A DNA stretch of 64,000 bases. Source: an uncultured Pseudomonadota bacterium (GTDB lineage: Bacteria; Pseudomonadota; Alphaproteobacteria; Rs-D84). Shown in pieces: positions 41,898-48,463 of the stretch. Both the position numbers and the translations under genes were made by a program. The notes under the pieces are model-generated. The model searched no databases, was not told where the DNA came from, and saw nothing but the letters and a program-made list of their open reading frames with translations. Each line of letters opens with the position of its first letter. The first letter of the stretch is position 1. The stretch is from positions 16,944 through 80,943 of the forward strand of contig CACXXP010000005.1 in assembly GCA_902771695.1 (NCBI GenBank), written 5' to 3'.

Positions 41898-41996
41898 AAA
41901 ATTACCAAAAATATGACAAAAATAAAAATATTGCACCGGCTTGCAATGTTTGGTATCCTATCCTTGTAATTGAAAAAATATTCAAGGGTTATAGAT

Positions 41997-42950
41997 ATGG
42001 CTATTAAGGTTCGTGATTTTGAGGTTCGGCTTACACGCAATAAAGAAGAACGCCGTTTGGTGCGTCGGTTGCGTTATGATGTTTTCGTCACCGAAGAAGG
42101 TGCATCTGCAACCCCAGAACAGCATGAATTGCAAGAAGAATTTGATTCTTTTGATAAATATGCTGACTATATGGCGGTGTTTCATGATGGCAAAATTGTT
42201 GGTGCGTATCGTATTATTGATAAAAAGGCCGCCGATAAAATGGGCGGGTTTTACACCGAAACAGAATTTAATATTTCCAAGATAAAAAAAGCATCTGATA
42301 ATATTGCCGAAATGTCACGCGCATGCGTGGCCCAGGAATACCGTGAAAATGCGTTGGTAATGCGTATGTTGTGGGCGGGACTTAGTGAATATGTATTGCG
42401 TCGTCAAATTGCGGTATTATTTGGTGTTGCATCATGGACTGGGGTAAAACCTGTGGAATCGGCCCAGGCAATATCATACCTGTATTATAATTATTTGTCG
42501 CCTGTGCGTCTGCGGGCACGTGTTATCCCAGAAAAGTTTGCCGAAGGTGCAGATCCACGCATGGCAAAAATGAATATATTGCCACGTGCATTCGTTGATG
42601 AAGAAAAGGCAAAAAAACAAATGACGCCACTTATCAAGGGGTATTTGCGTATGGGTGCGACATTTGGTCAGGGCGTATTTATTGATAAACCGTTTAATAC
42701 ATACGATGTGTTCGTTATGTTGCAAACAAAAAATATGGATGCCGCATATCAAAAGCATTTTTATGGTCGTGAAAACGCACTGGAACATTTGGATGTAAAA
42801 CCACGGCCTTTGCACACATTGGGAAAAATAATGCTAAAGCCAATAACTGGTTCATTAAATATGTTAGGGGCGTTCTTTGAATTCTTGTTGCGTGAAGATG
42901 CCGCCGATGCAGAATTTATTGATGAAGTTCCAGAATCAGACGAGGAATAA
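41997..42950 (+). CDS. olsB: GNAT-fold N-acyltransferase, OlsB-like (ornithine/amino-acid lipid synthesis)
   Basis: RLRYDVF, GFYTETEF, EMSRACV..YR, PLIKGYLRMGA, DKPFNTYDVF. Confidence 0.75.
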   Translation: MAIKVRDFEVRLTRNKEERRLVRRLRYDVFVTEEGASATPEQHELQEEFDSFDKYADYMAVFHDGKIVGAYRIIDKKAADKMGGFYTETEFNISKIKKASDNIAEMSRACVAQEYRENALVMRMLWAGLSEYVLRRQIAVLFGVASWTGVKPVESAQAISYLYYNYLSPVRLRARVIPEKFAEGADPRMAKMNILPRAFVDEEKAKKQMTPLIKGYLRMGATFGQGVFIDKPFNTYDVFVMLQTKNMDAAYQKHFYGRENALEHLDVKPRPLHTLGKIMLKPITGSLNMLGAFFEFLLREDAADAEFIDEVPESDEE

Positions 42951-42959
42951 TTATATAAA

Positions 42960-43781
42960 ATGGCAACGGTCAGAAAACAAAATCTTTTTAATACAATAAC
43001 TGGTTCACTGCGATTTGCGGCATTTTGGATAATGGTTGTTGCGCAATTGCCAATAATTATACTGTTACCAAAACGCAAAAAGATAACCGTTAAATATATG
43101 GCTGTATTTATGAAGATTCTGTTGATATTGGCCAGTATCAAGATTGTGAAACATGGACAAATATCAAAAAAACGTCCTTTGTTGGTTGCAGGTAATCATA
43201 TATCAGTATTTGAAATTGCAACTTTCCCTGTGATGTTCGGGGGCAGTTTTATTTCCAAGAACGATGTTCGCCATTGGCCGTTGGTCGGATACATTGCAAA
43301 CAAATTTGGGGTGGTGTTCATTGACCGCCGTCCTTCGCATGCACTGGATGCGTTAAAATTAGTTCAAGATGAAATAGCCAAAATTTCATACCCATTGTAT
43401 ATTTTCCCCGAAGGAACAACAACAAACGGTGCATATGTGAAAGAATTTAAAAGCAGTTTGTTCAATGTTGCCGAAGGTACAGATGTCACGCTGCAACCTG
43501 TGGTGACACAATATTGTTTCCATGATGGCACACCGATTGATGAAGAAAATTTGGCCGAACATTTTGCGTACTTTGATAATGCAAAGCAGACCCAGGGACC
43601 AAAGTGTTCACGTGAACGCAGCGCGTTTGGTCAAATTTTTCATGTAATGGTTTTGGGTGGATTTACCGTAAATGTGTATATGTTGCCGCCGCCGCCTTTG
43701 GCGGGTAAAGACAGAAAAGAAATGGCAAATGCTATGCACAAAATTATTTCAGATAAATATACGGAAATTCAGAAAAGGTAA
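42960..43781 (+). CDS. Lysophospholipid acyltransferase family protein (OlsA/PlsC-like)
   Basis: GNHISVFE, FISKNDVRHWPLVG, FIDR, IFPEGTTTNG; directly after olsB. Confidence 0.85.
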   Translation: MATVRKQNLFNTITGSLRFAAFWIMVVAQLPIIILLPKRKKITVKYMAVFMKILLILASIKIVKHGQISKKRPLLVAGNHISVFEIATFPVMFGGSFISKNDVRHWPLVGYIANKFGVVFIDRRPSHALDALKLVQDEIAKISYPLYIFPEGTTTNGAYVKEFKSSLFNVAEGTDVTLQPVVTQYCFHDGTPIDEENLAEHFAYFDNAKQTQGPKCSRERSAFGQIFHVMVLGGFTVNVYMLPPPPLAGKDRKEMANAMHKIISDKYTEIQKR

Positions 43782-43786
43782 TCAAA

Positions 43787-45070
43787 ATGAAAATAGAAAA
43801 TTTATGTGTAAGACGCTTGATTGGTGATGTATCAGGCGCAACGACACGTGGTCATAAAATTGCAATTAAGGGTGGTTATATCCATCAAACATTTCAGGGT
43901 GGTTATACACTTTCACCATTGGGTTGGCGCGTCGTTAAAAATATAGAAAACATCATTCGTGAAGAGATGAATGCCATTGACGGTCAAGAAATCTTGATGC
44001 CGGTTGTCTGTGGGGCGGATCTGTGGCGCCAAAGTGGTCGTTATGACACCATAGATTCTTTGGTAAAATTTACCGGGCGTAACGGAACAGATTATGTCAT
44101 TAGCCCAACGCACGAAGAAATCGTTGTTGATTTTGTCAGCAGTGTTTTGGAAACATATCGCCAAATGCCTTTTATGGTATATCAAATTCAGGGCAAATTT
44201 CGTGATGAATTACGCGCACGGGCCGGGCTTGTGCGGACACGCGAATTCATTATGAAAGATGCGTATTCGTTCCATGAAACGTGGGCGAATTTAGAAAAAT
44301 ATTATCAACGCTGTTGGGCCGCGTATAACAAATTGTTCCGCAGGTGCGGATTAAAAAACTTTGTTATAGTTGAATCATCAACCGGCGATATGGGCGGCAA
44401 GATTGCACACGAATTCCAACTTATAACCGATATGGGTGAAGATACAATTTTCATCTGTGATGAATGCGGATACAAATGCAACAAAGAATTGGTAGATAAT
44501 GAAACCGCGATATGTCCAAAATGTGGTGCAAAAATGCGCGTCGTTCGTGGAATAGAGATTGGCAATATTTTCCAATTGGGGACATTCTATTCTAAATCAA
44601 TGAACCTGACATATACCGCATCAGATGGAACACAAAAACATCCAATTATGGGATGCTATGGAATTGGTGTCGGGCGCGCCATGGCCGCAATATTAGAAGA
44701 AAGTTCTGATGATAATGGTCCGGTATGGAATATGGAAACGGCGCCTTTTGCGGTTCATGTAATCGGCCTTAATGGCAAAGACATGCGCGTGATGGAATTG
44801 GCACAACGTATTCACGATGATTTGGTCGCAAATGGCATAGAAACCATATTGGATAATCGTGATATTCGTGCCGGTGAAAAATTCGCAGATGCTGATTTAA
44901 TTGCCGCACCAATTCGGTTGATTGTGTCCGACAAAAACATAAAAGAAAATGTGATAGAGGTTAAATATCGTGTTAACGATTTTGATACATCCAACATGCC
45001 AAACCAATTTGGTGTATCAGATTTTCTGACGAAAGTAAAAGATACAATATGTACGTTGGCGCATAAATAG
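43787..45070 (+). CDS. proS: Proline-tRNA ligase, bacterial type, short form (no INS editing domain)
   Basis: PTHEE, KFRDELRARAGLVRTREFIMKDAYSFH, GIEIGNIFQLG, MGCYGIGVGR, anticodon-binding domain. Confidence 0.9.
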   Translation: MKIENLCVRRLIGDVSGATTRGHKIAIKGGYIHQTFQGGYTLSPLGWRVVKNIENIIREEMNAIDGQEILMPVVCGADLWRQSGRYDTIDSLVKFTGRNGTDYVISPTHEEIVVDFVSSVLETYRQMPFMVYQIQGKFRDELRARAGLVRTREFIMKDAYSFHETWANLEKYYQRCWAAYNKLFRRCGLKNFVIVESSTGDMGGKIAHEFQLITDMGEDTIFICDECGYKCNKELVDNETAICPKCGAKMRVVRGIEIGNIFQLGTFYSKSMNLTYTASDGTQKHPIMGCYGIGVGRAMAAILEESSDDNGPVWNMETAPFAVHVIGLNGKDMRVMELAQRIHDDLVANGIETILDNRDIRAGEKFADADLIAAPIRLIVSDKNIKENVIEVKYRVNDFDTSNMPNQFGVSDFLTKVKDTICTLAHK

Positions 45071-45071
45071 G

Positions 45072-45096
45072 AAATGGGGCAAACGCCCTATTTTTT
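45072..45096 (+). terminator. Terminator between the two proS genes
   Basis: ATGGGGC-aaac-GCCCTAT then T tract. Confidence 0.6.
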
Positions 45097-45161
45097 ATAA
45101 TACTTGTTTTATGCTTTTTTTACGTGTATGATATGTGGCATGAATTAACAAAGGATATAAA

Positions 45162-46601
45162 ATGAAGACAGCAATAACACCAACCAGAGCGGAAAATTTC
45201 AGTGAGTGGTATCAAAATCTTATCGTTGCAGCCGATTTGGCAGAAAATGCCCCTGTGCGTGGTTGTATGACGATAAAGCCATATGGTTGGGCAATTTGGG
45301 AATTGATGCGTGATGAAATGGATAAGCGTATTAAGGCATCTGGTGTACAAAATGCGAATTTCCCATTGCTGATTCCAATTGAATTCTTCAATAAAGAGGC
45401 CGAACATGTCGCAGGATTTGCCAAAGAAGCCGCGGTTGTCACACATTATCGTTTGAAAATGATAGATGGCAAATTACAACCAGACCCAGAATCAAAACTT
45501 ACCGAACCATACATTATCCGTCCAACATCTGAAACCATTATTGGCGAAGCAATGTCGCGTTGGGTGCAATCTTATCGTGATTTGCCATTAAAATTGAATC
45601 AGTGGGTAAATGTTATGCGTTGGGAAATGCGTCCACGTATGTTCTTGCGCACATCCGAATTTAATTGGCAAGAAGGTCATAATGTTTTTGCAACGCATGA
45701 AGATGCAAACGAAGATGCGCGTAAAATGCATAAAATGTATGGTGATTATATGCGCGATGTCTTGGCAATTCCATGCATTATGGGTGAAAAAACCCCCGAA
45801 GAAAGATTTGCAGGGGCCGACCATACATATACGGTTGAACAAATCATGCAGGACGGCAAGGCATTACAGGCCGGAACATCACATGATTTAGGGCAACATT
45901 TTGCAAAATCTTTTGGAATTCAATATTTGGGGACCGATGGAAAATTGACGCATGCATGGACAACATCTTGGGGAACATCAACGCGTATGATGGGCGGATT
46001 GTTGATGACACACAGTGATGACGATGGGCTGATTTTGCCCCCGGCTGTTGCCCCACACCAAGTCGTGATTATTCCAATTACACGTGGTGACGAAGATACA
46101 TCCGCATGGAAAGCATTTACAGATAACCTGGAATCACAATTGCGGGAACGTGGTATTCGTGTGTTGACCGATAATTCTGATATGCGCAGTGCCGATAAAA
46201 TGTGGAAATGGATTAAACGTGGTGTGCCGTTGCGTGTAGAGGTTGGCGCACGTGAATTTGAAACCAGCACCGTCACAATAACACGTCGTGATTTGGGCAA
46301 ATCGTCCAAAGAAACAGTATCCGTTGTTGATTTTGGTGAATTGGTTGCGGCGAAATTAGATGCAATTCAACGTGATATGTATATTGCCGCCGCTGAACGT
46401 AATAAAACGATGATTCATGATGTAAAAACTTTGGCCGAACTAGAATCCGCATTGGCGGACGGCAAGGTCGGATTTTTCCGTATTAAATATAATGAAACAC
46501 AAAATGAAAAGTTTGATGGACTGATTGAAAAATACAAAATTTCACGTCGTTGTTTGGATGACAGTGATCCAAGTTTTGTATTTGTTGCAAAATCGTATTA
46601 A
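45162..46601 (+). CDS. proS: Proline-tRNA ligase, archaeal/eukaryote type
   Basis: FSEWYQ, GCMTIKPYGWAIWE, RPTSET, LPLKLNQWVNVMRWE, FLRTSEFNWQEGH, SWGTSTR, C-terminal AKSY. Confidence 0.95.
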   Translation: MKTAITPTRAENFSEWYQNLIVAADLAENAPVRGCMTIKPYGWAIWELMRDEMDKRIKASGVQNANFPLLIPIEFFNKEAEHVAGFAKEAAVVTHYRLKMIDGKLQPDPESKLTEPYIIRPTSETIIGEAMSRWVQSYRDLPLKLNQWVNVMRWEMRPRMFLRTSEFNWQEGHNVFATHEDANEDARKMHKMYGDYMRDVLAIPCIMGEKTPEERFAGADHTYTVEQIMQDGKALQAGTSHDLGQHFAKSFGIQYLGTDGKLTHAWTTSWGTSTRMMGGLLMTHSDDDGLILPPAVAPHQVVIIPITRGDEDTSAWKAFTDNLESQLRERGIRVLTDNSDMRSADKMWKWIKRGVPLRVEVGAREFETSTVTITRRDLGKSSKETVSVVDFGELVAAKLDAIQRDMYIAAAERNKTMIHDVKTLAELESALADGKVGFFRIKYNETQNEKFDGLIEKYKISRRCLDDSDPSFVFVAKSY

Positions 46602-46622: not shown

Positions 46623-46653
46623 AAAAACGGATGCTTTCACATCCGTTTTTTTT
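46623..46653. terminator. Hairpin A upstream of orphan gene
   Basis: AAAAACGGATG-ctttca-CATCCGTTTTTTTT. Confidence 0.75.
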
Positions 46654-46670: not shown

Positions 46671-47684
46671 ATGATACAATTCATACAAATGAAACAAATG
46701 GAGTGTAACATGCCAGAACAAATGATAGTTGTTGATTATAAAAAGGTTAAACAATTGGAAAAGGACGCCTATGATTTTTCACCCGCAGAAGAAAGGGAAA
46801 AAGGAAGAATACCGGCCAGATTTACCCCCTTTTTGGAAAAGTCATTAGTTTATGGTGTACCAATTAAACCCGAAGATATGAATAAGGTAACAGAGGAATT
46901 TAATAATGGTCGGTTATCACAACAAGAATATGATTTGTTCAAATTTGTTTTTGACCAATGTAATGGTAAAACTCCGGAACAAGCAAAGTATATCATGCAA
47001 CAAATGTCTATTATGCTAGATCCGGTTGTATTGAAATTATACGTAGATGATTCACAGGTTTATTCCGCCGTATTACAAAGATATAATTTATTCAAAGAGG
47101 GAAAAATATCTGGCGCAGAGATGTCTTTTTACCAAATGGAACAGATCATAAAGGACAATGATGCATTGTACGAAGATTTTCTGGTTAGATACTTTGATTA
47201 TATTTGGTCAGATAGTCGCATTGACATTATCAAGGATTTTTATACGGCTCAATCGGCCGGTTATAGAGATCAAGTATTTGATGCACGTTATGTATTGAAA
47301 CAATTTAAGCTTTGGCGGCATCCAAAACCAGAAATTATAGACCATGTTGTACAAAGAACTACCAAAATCGTGGATAAGATTATTGAACAAGAAATAGCGA
47401 AACCAAAACCGGATATGGAACGTCTATCAGAGTTTAGTCTTCTTATGATATTTGTTGTTCGGTTTATTATGATGCAAAATAAACCATCACTAGATGAAAT
47501 TGAAAAGTTCGAAAATGCTTATAGCATGGAAACGATAAAGACCCGTATTGAGCAAAAATTGCAACAACGGCGTGAAACAATCCGACGTATTGCAGATATG
47601 CAAGAAAAAACGAACAGAATATTGCAAAATATGTCACGTGGTGTAAAAGCCCCAATTCCAATGAAACAAAGGGAAAATATGTAA
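46671..47684 (+). CDS. Orphan helical hypothetical protein (337 aa; likely start at a downstream Met)
   Basis: Long ORF, GGAG upstream of MPEQ; charged, predicted helical, no signal peptide. Confidence 0.75.
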   Translation: MIQFIQMKQMECNMPEQMIVVDYKKVKQLEKDAYDFSPAEEREKGRIPARFTPFLEKSLVYGVPIKPEDMNKVTEEFNNGRLSQQEYDLFKFVFDQCNGKTPEQAKYIMQQMSIMLDPVVLKLYVDDSQVYSAVLQRYNLFKEGKISGAEMSFYQMEQIIKDNDALYEDFLVRYFDYIWSDSRIDIIKDFYTAQSAGYRDQVFDARYVLKQFKLWRHPKPEIIDHVVQRTTKIVDKIIEQEIAKPKPDMERLSEFSLLMIFVVRFIMMQNKPSLDEIEKFENAYSMETIKTRIEQKLQQRRETIRRIADMQEKTNRILQNMSRGVKAPIPMKQRENM

Positions 47685-47712
47685 AAAACGGATGCATTTG
47701 CATCCGTTTTTT
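47683..47712. terminator. Hairpin B downstream of orphan gene
   Basis: AAAAAACGGATGC-attt-GCATCCGTTTTTT. Confidence 0.8.
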
Positions 47713-48463
47713 ATTTCTTACATGCCAACACGATGTTGTGGGTTAATGTTTGTTCTGTGGCGCCACGCGAATTTAGTATTATTGTGTTCTTGGCGCCCAT
47801 TAAAAAACACAATGGTTCCCAATTATCACACAGCACGGATAAAGATTTGAATATTGCGTTACCTGTATTGATATTATCAACAACAATTATATCTGCAATT
47901 TCCCCCCCCAGATGTTTTTCAGCCCTGATATTTTTATCCAATGCAACATCCAATTGTTCAATTCGCAATGTAGATTTCGGAAATTCATCTGTGTGTGCCA
48001 TATACCAAGAATTAAGCAACGGTGTTATTTTCGCATTTGTATCCCCACCCGCCGATATCAATGATATAAATGGGAAATGGTTATCACCAAATATTTGCTT
48101 AAATAATAATACCGCATTTTGCACTATATGTGTTAACTGATTTTCATCGGGGGCCGGAACGCATGCCGCATCGGTTAAAATAAACGGCGGGCGGCGGTTT
48201 GTTTTGTCAAAAAATACGGTGCAGTGTGTTAAATAAAACTTTTCACCATTGTTCAATTTTTTATTTATTGCGATAACATGGCGCAAGAAATCTTCAGAAT
48301 GAATATCGCATTTCATCAAAATCAAATCATCATTCGTGCGCGGTAATTCATCGCCATTGGGGGCATATTCCCAACCTGCAATATTTGTACATTCGTTCAT
48401 CGCATTTTCAATGGCCTTTTGATGTTTATCACACACCGTTCCAAAACATAGAATTTTTTTCAT
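47711..48463 (-). CDS. Phosphate acetyl/butyryltransferase family protein (short, divergent)
   Basis: ILTDAACVPAP, QLDVAL, ADIIVVDNINTGNAIFKSL, MGAKNTIILNSRG. Confidence 0.75.
   Translation of the reverse strand: MKKILCFGTVCDKHQKAIENAMNECTNIAGWEYAPNGDELPRTNDDLILMKCDIHSEDFLRHVIAINKKLNNGEKFYLTHCTVFFDKTNRRPPFILTDAACVPAPDENQLTHIVQNAVLLFKQIFGDNHFPFISLISAGGDTNAKITPLLNSWYMAHTDEFPKSTLRIEQLDVALDKNIRAEKHLGGEIADIIVVDNINTGNAIFKSLSVLCDNWEPLCFLMGAKNTIILNSRGATEQTLTHNIVLACKK

Follow-up and report, generated by a model that had tools for sequence, protein, structure and literature searches.

Why should two genes for prolyl-tRNA synthetase (ProRS), one of the bacterial type (P-type) and one of the archaeal/eukaryote type (E-type), stand side by side in a bacterium with a tiny genome, those of Candidatus Enterousia measuring about 0.9 Mb (~0.75-1.0 Mb; PMC12306168)? 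The pair lies in a stretch of 64,000 nucleotides, here called the window (assembly GCA_902771695.1, contig CACXXP010000005.1, positions 16,944 to 80,943, forward strand), whose host is Candidatus Enterousia (Alphaproteobacteria, order Rs-D84), a rumen bacterium. The P-type gene is designated ProRS_B and the E-type gene ProRS_A throughout. The initial annotation of the window, made from its letters and open reading frames (ORFs), offered three readings of the tandem: a displacement caught in progress, a backup against inhibitors, or a repurposed copy. ProRS is one of few synthetases with two architectures, and how one comes to replace the other has for the most part been deduced from the end states that distant taxa display. 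We find that the two genes are complete ProRS of different ancestry that occupy a single slot downstream of olsB-olsA, the slot being defined as the position right after olsA, with the olsA stop codon as its 5' edge. We consider it likely that they are two functional homeoalleles sharing this slot, and that the tandem is a stable arrangement of single origin rather than a decaying intermediate.

Two complete enzymes of different ancestry

Curated family models place the two proteins in different architectures. ProRS_B scores 431.2 bits over the whole protein against TIGR00409 (proS_fam_II), where the cut-off is 306.7, and ProRS_A scores 447.2 bits against TIGR00408 (proS_fam_I), where it is 437. 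The class II core (PF00587) and the HGTP anticodon-binding domain (PF03129) are found in both; for ProRS_A these are the only Pfam matches at E <= 0.01, with no family matching its C-terminal domain. The succession first described, a 427-aa P-type gene, a terminator and a 479-aa E-type gene, agrees with these scores, with the coordinates and lengths, and with the hairpin between the genes (Table 1).

The best solved relatives of ProRS_B are the ProRS of Enterococcus faecalis (2J3L), Staphylococcus aureus and Pseudomonas aeruginosa; in sequence it matches the Firmicutes/Pseudomonas enzymes at 322 bits versus 267 bits for the Rhodopseudomonas palustris enzyme, which lacks the INS editing domain. 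Neither of two NCBIfam equivalogs, NF006625 and NF008979 (PRK12325), recognises it above the cut-off; for the latter, which models the INS-less ProRS of Alphaproteobacteria, it has 388.2 bits against 550. Motifs 2 and 3, which ProRS_B had been said to keep, are indeed intact: FRDELRxRAGLxRTREFIMKDAYSFH and GCYGIGVGR can both be aligned with solved ProRS structures and show no variation within the family. An N-terminus of the form MKIENLCV..GDV.GATT.GHK is kept across the whole subfamily, including species in which ProRS_B is the only ProRS in the slot, and so is a motif 2 loop reading R[VA]RAG (RARAG in the window, RVRAG in relatives). The divergent N-terminus and RARAG remarked upon initially are therefore present but no oddity, since both extend through the subfamily and the E. 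faecalis enzyme itself has RSRSG at the loop. Judged by sequence conservation, the N-terminus, the RxRAG loop and the cysteine knuckle described below are family traits, none of them a sign of decay. An AlphaFold model of ProRS_B is of moderate quality overall (pLDDT 69), with low values for the N-terminal 43 residues and the motif 2 loop, and its best fold matches are bacterial ProRS.

Outside Enterousia, the named nearest relatives of ProRS_B carry only Clostridia and Fusibacter labels, too thin a basis for naming a donor. A short ProRS of the ProRS_B type from Fusibacter sp. (P0406, 414 aa, 47% identical) is labelled "aminoacyl-tRNA ligase-related protein" by NCBI and belongs to a 3.8-Mb Firmicutes genome; because of that label in a genome of that size, short ProRS of this type may be a second, accessory copy in some bacteria. 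In a further protein, P0304, a ProRS_B-like catalytic region occupies residues 864-1085 of 1401, which suggests a fusion protein.

ProRS_A has its best solved relative in the Thermus thermophilus ProRS (1H4Q, 386 bits), with eukaryotic enzymes next, and its best 120 matches all come from Enterousia. Zinc-binding cysteines were not found in its C-terminal domain, the last 85 residues of which contain one Cys. The zinc site is missing in some E-type ProRS, so its absence is compatible with membership. The C-terminal Tyr of ProRS_A is present in all 60-odd homologues extracted, and a C-terminal extension ending in a conserved Tyr is a feature of E-type ProRS (PMC11229370).

Contents of the slot across the genus

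A locus set was collected with OlsB as the anchor and one genome per GTDB species, giving 80 loci that are named Candidatus Enterousia or unnamed Alphaproteobacteria and come from rumen and gut; slot content was scored by tblastn. Like all data underlying this study, these loci are metagenome assemblies. ProRS_A is alone in the slot in 48 of the 80 species (four of them cut by a contig end) and ProRS_B in 19 (one cut), while five species (L019, L025, L028, L036 and L046), members of one rumen clade that includes the window, carry both, always B and then A. The slot is empty in another five (L051, L057, L060, L088 and L089), where olsA is followed directly by ldh or other genes, and the state of the remaining three could not be scored. 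Relatives with a ProRS_B 72% identical to that of the window keep the neighbourhood (M13 peptidase, radical SAM, Pom, SLT, olsB, olsA ... ldh) and have no ProRS_A; in others, ProRS_B is missing and olsA is followed at once by ProRS_A.

The statement that a genome holds one form combines these locus data with 14 ProRS-anchored look-ups or scan hits (10 for B, 4 for A), in none of which was a ProRS of either type found outside the slot. A scan of metagenomes with the ProRS_B alignment gained just three more Enterousia contexts (L099-L101), each with B in the slot, the other hits being unrelated ProRS at 33-49% identity. Because ProRS_B is the sole slot ProRS in 19 species, and because neither type was seen outside the slot in the 14 look-ups, we regard it as a real housekeeping ProRS; on the strength of that sole status it would be expected to prolylate tRNAPro.

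The junction itself is not chimeric, a danger that had been recognised from the start. The exact ProRS_B protein occurs on 12 contigs from independent samples and assemblers, in the order olsB-olsA-ProRS_B-ProRS_A wherever the contig reaches, and the tandem recurs with diverged sequence in at least 8 other lineages (the five species above and L193-L195). The latter three, reached through look-ups of P0007 and P0011, carry the 427-aa, CDEC type of ProRS_B seen in the window. Among the matches listed (the best 120 per gene), a comparison of the longest contigs for the two genes placed both on one contig only in tandems already known (contigs of 8343, 6525 and 23279 bp). An assembly or binning artefact that joined two strains would be easiest to imagine where every sequence derives from a metagenome, but an identical junction on independent contigs from different samples and assemblers, diverged versions in other lineages, and a spacer with conserved signals of its own leave it a negligible chance.

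Precision of the exchange

Comparison of closely related loci with unlike contents shows how exactly one gene takes the place of the other. L042, with ProRS_B, and L043, with ProRS_A, share 96.6% identity over 9.3 kb upstream and 95-97% downstream; in successive stretches of 200 nt, identity holds at 94-99% as far as the start codon, where homology stops, and it resumes 50-100 nt past the stop. In four sister pairs of unlike type, shared lineage-specific upstream sequence continues through ATGAAAA, which is common to both ORFs, and in four such pairs a common lineage-specific terminator hairpin appears within a few nt of the stop. Whichever type a single-gene locus holds, the ProRS start overlaps or abuts the olsA stop (ATGA), and in single-gene relatives a hairpin homologous to the slot terminator of the window follows whichever ProRS is last. 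Since the olsA junction and the terminator match for either type, the exchanged unit is essentially the ORF. The exchange is thus ORF-for-ORF, from the ATGAAAA start to a few nt past the stop, and it leaves the lineage-specific flanks untouched, the downstream terminator included.

Signals specific to the tandem

In the tandem clade, ProRS_B is translationally linked to olsA and has a terminator of its own, and ProRS_A has acquired a promoter-like element and a ribosome-binding site. Four other tandem loci (L019, L025, L028 and L036) likewise have a hairpin with a T-run at the equivalent place; L046, with 950 bp of extra DNA 3' of ProRS_B, carries a different hairpin there. Every tandem locus, L046 and L193 with their extra DNA among them, has the promoter-like motif upstream of ProRS_A, and no single-gene locus has it; for this reason, together with the monophyly of the tandem in the trees described below, we regard the tandem as having arisen once. 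The ribosome-binding site has its counterpart in an AAAGG kept in the other tandem spacers. Promoter function of the element is inferred from its conservation and from the start of one metatranscriptome contig at 45138, 6 nt past the -10 hexamer. A consensus promoter scan missed the conserved spacer element, the -35 hexamer of which matches at 3/6 positions, and the promoter-like sites that it reported are no commoner than in shuffled sequence. An Rfam scan of the window returned tRNAs only, with no T-box or other leader upstream of either ProRS gene.

The extra DNA differs between the two loci that have it. In L046 (6903-7873), 950 bp are inserted between ProRS_B and ProRS_A, and the promoter-like motif still lies directly upstream of ProRS_A. 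In L193 (5347-6174, the P0007 locus), the intervening DNA holds a MYG1-family exonuclease gene on the opposite strand, and the motif still abuts ProRS_A.

Selection and expression

Every copy of ProRS_A and ProRS_B extracted is a full-length ORF. Pairwise dN/dS (omega, NG86) is 0.05-0.09 for either gene, whether a lineage has the tandem or a single gene; between tandem species it is ~0.07-0.08 for ProRS_B and ~0.06 for ProRS_A, at a dS of ~1.2. Both genes have accordingly been kept intact under strong purifying selection in the tandem clade for a long time.

Logan contigs from four gut metatranscriptomes cover the 5' half of ProRS_B and most of ProRS_A at no less than 95% identity, and none was found on the 337-aa ORF downstream or on the middle of olsB/olsA. 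These contigs are supportive, not decisive, as to the use of both genes. An abundant 3.2-kb contig (depth 35-46, three metatranscriptome runs) matches the window only at 41912-41932 and 43734-43754, 21 nt each, as "joint"; the match is probably coincidental, the transcript being an unrelated one with high expression.

A four-cysteine knuckle in place of the editing domain

An INS editing domain of ~180 residues between motifs 2 and 3 is typical of the P-type family, although not universal. ProRS_B aligns with 2J3L in two blocks, between which chain residues ~235-398, the INS domain, are replaced by ~25 residues (CDECGYKCNKELVDNETAICPKCG). The four cysteines of this segment are present without exception in sets of 7 and of 14 family members, relatives of ProRS_B having CDCG (CxC) where the window has CDEC, and the segment is modelled by AlphaFold at pLDDT 81-93. 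As to the zinc ribbon proposed initially at the INS site, the replacement of INS by four invariant cysteines is borne out; that the knuckle binds metal is a plausible reading of its cysteines. In the titles and abstracts returned by a literature search on INS-lacking or zinc-binding ProRS, a Cys-knuckle variant is not described.

Cysteine pairs of the form CxxC...CPxC at the INS site are common in unrelated short, INS-less ProRS at 40-46% identity from groundwater, sludge and other metagenomes (L102-L119, L130, L133 and L140). In a sister set (L115 and L121-L129), the same short insert is present and the cysteines are gone.

Phylogeny of the slot and mosaicism of ProRS_B

On a neighbour-joining tree of six flanking proteins, the A and B states interleave to the tips and the tandem loci form one clade. 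The tandem is monophyletic in the ProRS_A and ProRS_B trees as well, and both of these broadly mirror the flank tree. Under unordered parsimony, 11 changes suffice, with A at the root. If losses alone are allowed, 31 of the 68 internal nodes must have carried the tandem, amounting to 48% of internal branch length, and 27 deletions must have occurred independently; on this count parsimony favours replacement.

In a plot of gene against flank divergence, ProRS_B of the window is the main outlier, and the reason appears when identity is followed along the protein. In aa ~50-290, which span the catalytic segment, it is 56-74% identical to the remaining copies of the tandem clade, whose identity among themselves is 84-100% there, and 71-84% identical to L093, from horse gut. 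In aa 300-427, the anticodon-binding domain, the relation is reversed, with 80-88% identity to the tandem clade and 44-66% to L093. Within aa ~50-290, dN is elevated and so is dS. This pattern fits a mosaic of two lineages rather than relaxed constraint, and because ProRS_B of the window is such a mosaic, recombination can be said to act at the slot.

Alternative histories and functions

The mechanism we propose has the tandem arise once, when one type would have been placed beside the other, and has homologous recombination in the conserved flanks, between related strains or species, account for most switches between A-only and B-only, in place of repeated losses that start from a tandem ancestor. 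Most A/B switches would then be replacements, most simply through flank recombination between related lineages. Both enzymes would charge the same bacterial tRNAPro, as their mutual substitution at the slot suggests, and so be functionally interchangeable homeoalleles; the tandem may have been kept because the isozymes differ in some property relevant in the rumen, be it stress tolerance, fidelity or inhibitor sensitivity. The alternative with most in its favour on the side of history is that the ancestor of the genus already had the tandem, the single-gene species descending from it by independent deletions guided by repeats at the start codons and terminators. The divergences of A and B do track that of the flanks, a AAAATGAA repeat precedes both ORFs in tandem loci, deletions guided repeatedly by it at both start codons are possible, and the hairpin that follows ProRS_A in the tandem shares its ancestry with the slot terminator of single-gene loci. 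This account is nevertheless improbable. It places a tandem over nearly half of the internal branch length and calls for its 27 deletions to be precise, yet the tandem is found in one clade; L042 and L043 would need a very recent tandem ancestor inside a 13-species subclade without any tandem; and no single-gene locus retains a trace of the tandem spacer. We think it less probable still that the tandem is a short-lived intermediate in which a new E-type gene is replacing an already decaying P-type gene. Three states at one slot are what the classical pathway of addition and loss would produce, A-only is both the commonest state and the parsimony root, and the B copy of the window sits on a long branch. 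That branch is explained by the mosaic, with raised dS as well as dN, and not by relaxed constraint; tandem species are separated by dS >1 with both genes intact, ProRS_B has an omega of ~0.07 as in B-only lineages, its catalytic domain is highly conserved within the tandem clade, its seemingly odd motifs are family-wide, metatranscriptome contigs fall on it, and the dedicated promoter motif of ProRS_A is kept across the clade. Displacement in progress, as first suggested, therefore describes the genus, in which A, B or both stand at the slot, but not the tandem, which is a single-origin clade with both genes intact at omega 0.06-0.08.

Readings that concern function can be set against the same data. 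That the INS-less, Cys-knuckle protein has been repurposed for another role, such as regulation or tRNA-independent chemistry, might draw on its scores below the two equivalog cut-offs and on the NCBI label of its Fusibacter relative, but it is very unlikely: ProRS_B passes the TIGR00409 cut-off, its motifs 2 and 3 and its anticodon-binding domain are under strong constraint, and in 19 of 80 species, with no other ProRS seen, it stands precisely where the E-type gene stands in others, while the 10 look-ups made for it never found it elsewhere. This part of the initial annotation is not sustained. A backup function, in which a natural ProRS inhibitor or a stress of the gut would leave one isozyme unaffected and so keep both types in the genus and both genes in the tandem clade, concerns the selective cause; it is compatible with the explanation we prefer and may be entertained tentatively. 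It draws by analogy on the inhibitor and stress tolerance of BtProRS2, the E-type enzyme of Bacillus thuringiensis, and on IleRS2, which confers mupirocin resistance (PMC11229370), and a second 1.4-kb gene for an essential function, held under purifying selection in a 0.9-Mb genome (PMC12306168), calls for some benefit. Against it, the 6 kb to either side of the pair contain no biosynthetic cluster, resistance gene or mobile element, and many species thrive with either gene alone. It is similarly conceivable, if on the doubtful side, that the P-type and E-type genes are a long-lived, balanced polymorphism of "structural alleles", kept across speciation in this host-associated genus of small genomes by recombination at the slot and driven by some agent of the gut, such as a natural ProRS inhibitor or a stress favouring one isozyme, with both fixed in the tandem clade.

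Several observations weigh against two stable, interchangeable homeoalleles exchanged through their flanks. That the divergence of the genes rises with that of the flanks (rho 0.71 for A and 0.63 for B) fits vertical descent of a long-lived tandem equally well, and B could have been deleted precisely and repeatedly under the guidance of the 7-8 nt repeat that tandem loci have at both start codons. The flank trees are neighbour-joining trees of six proteins rather than a genome phylogeny and carry no support values. The five species with an empty slot, whose ProRS must for that reason sit elsewhere in the genome, prove that ProRS can lie outside the slot; states are read at the locus only, and an A-only genome could hold a B copy elsewhere, or the reverse. 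No tRNAPro gene, from which identity elements (G72/A73 in the bacterial type) could be read, is present in the window or in the 60 related loci searched, and interchangeability, like zinc binding, is read from sequence. The dS values are saturated, which makes the omega values rough, with no sign of relaxation among them, and the RNA evidence consists of Logan contigs that come without strand or reliable depth and may contain DNA.

Genomic neighbourhood

The neighbours of the pair are olsB, olsA, a protein of unknown function, a PTA_PTB gene, ldh and sod (Table 1). The stretch from the slot to ldh is a second variable spot, occupied in relatives by glycosyltransferases, a spermine-synthase-like gene, a helix-turn-helix (HTH) gene, other genes or nothing (L007-L010, L011 and L179-L192).

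Table 1. Coordinates in the window of the ProRS slot, its signals and its flanking genes.
Feature	Position	Strand	Remarks
olsB-like N-acyltransferase (PF13444)	41997..42950	+	gene call and Pfam; upstream anchor, kept in 80/80 species loci
olsA-like acyltransferase (PF01553)	42960..43781	+	gene call and Pfam; stop marks 5' edge of slot
ProRS_B, P-type ProRS without INS editing domain, 427 aa	43787..45070	+	starts 5 nt after olsA stop
ProRS_B catalytic segment of different ancestry, aa ~50-290 (mosaic)	43934..44656	+	sliding-window identity
Four-Cys knuckle (C224, C227, C243, C246) at INS position of ProRS_B	44456..44527	+	two-block alignment to 2J3L
Intrinsic-terminator-like hairpin and T-run directly 3' of ProRS_B	45067..45098	+	14 pairs, -17.2 kcal/mol, z = -5.5
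Promoter-like element for ProRS_A	45102..45132	+	TTGTTT 45104-45109, 17 nt, TATGAT 45127-45132
Ribosome-binding site AAGGA	45151..45155	+	6 nt before ProRS_A start; read from sequence
ProRS_A, E-type ProRS, 479 aa, ending ...VAKSY	45162..46601	+	TIGR00408 match; 91 nt after ProRS_B
Slot terminator hairpin (AACGGATG...CATCCGTT and T-run) 3' of last ProRS gene	46623..46653	+	-13.2 kcal/mol, z = -5.8
Variable segment, slot to ldh	46671..48463		337-aa ORF (+, no Pfam match on record) and PTA_PTB-family gene 47711-48463 (-)

Significance and comparison with known systems

Enterousia offers a natural experiment in the swapping of an essential translation enzyme, with either type, both or neither at one position. 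It makes several matters testable: whether P-type and E-type enzymes are interchangeable on one set of tRNAPro, what a minimal genome gains from holding both, whether a homeoallele switch passes through a tandem or through flank recombination, and what the four-Cys knuckle does. It also carries a warning for annotation, in that "proS" in Enterousia genomes is not one orthologous gene. The initial annotation had allowed that such a tandem might be widespread and already described; it does recur in a clade, but no description of the slot pair, or of ProRS in Enterousia at all, was found in the papers searched.

Several known systems resemble parts of this one. The INS-less ProRS of R. palustris (PDB 2I4L; NF008979) is likewise a short P-type enzyme without a cis-editing domain, and the ProRS_B model matches its fold with a TM of ~0.65-0.67; ProRS_B differs in reaching 388 of the 550 bits set as the NF008979 cut-off, in lying nearer the Firmicutes/Pseudomonas enzymes, and in its four-Cys knuckle. 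Unlike the aminoacyl-tRNA synthetase (aaRS) duplicates that confer self-resistance or antibiotic resistance, such as IleRS2 and AgnB2, the Enterousia pair has no inhibitor cluster or mobile element linked to it within 6 kb. In xenologous or non-orthologous gene displacement in situ, treated by Koonin and colleagues, a distant homologue with the same function takes over the position of a gene in a conserved neighbourhood, as happens at the Enterousia slot. The classical examples come from comparisons of distant taxa, in which only end states are visible, whereas in Enterousia all states, the tandem included, occur within one genus.

E-type ProRS is estimated to occur in ~22% of bacteria, and B. 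thuringiensis (BtProRS1 and BtProRS2) and most other Bacillus species keep a P-type and an E-type enzyme together (PMC11229370). In B. thuringiensis both are expressed and both charge the P-type (bacterial) tRNAPro, and BtProRS2, the E-type enzyme, tolerates halofuginone, heat, H2O2 and DTT better than its partner or canonical enzymes; retention of the pair is ascribed to such differences in stress or inhibitor tolerance (PMC11229370). The tandem of the window is alike in having one ProRS of each architecture per genome and an E-type protein that ends in a conserved Tyr. It is unlike in that no adjacent genes or shared slot are reported for Bacillus in that paper, and the domain scheme there (Figure 1A of PMC11229370) includes INS where the Enterousia ProRS_B has the Cys knuckle. 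Most Enterousia species, moreover, known from sequence alone, hold one type, and either can be the sole copy.

The closest parallel lies in the aaRS homeoalleles of Andam, Williams and Gogarten, in which a group holds two deeply divergent forms, usually one per genome, the tree of each form roughly follows the organismal tree, and the rare genomes with both are read as transitions (PMC3191353). Homeoalleles of tyrRS stand in a common syntenic context, which those authors read as replacement through recombination in the flanks (PMC3191353). Enterousia is alike in having two divergent ProRS forms, mostly one per species (48 A, 19 B and 5 both among the 80), and in having both forms in one syntenic context with flanks intact after replacement. 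It is unlike in the enzyme concerned, in a resolution near the species level (flanks 96.6% identical), in boundaries exact to the ORF and in genomes of ~0.9 Mb; and the state with both forms is not a rare singleton but a clade-stable tandem in one slot, with its own promoter-like element. The Enterousia case thus fits the homeoallele kind, and adds to it ProRS, the occurrence of all states in one genus, ORF-exact boundaries, a stable tandem, hosts with minimal genomes and a P-type enzyme with a Cys knuckle.

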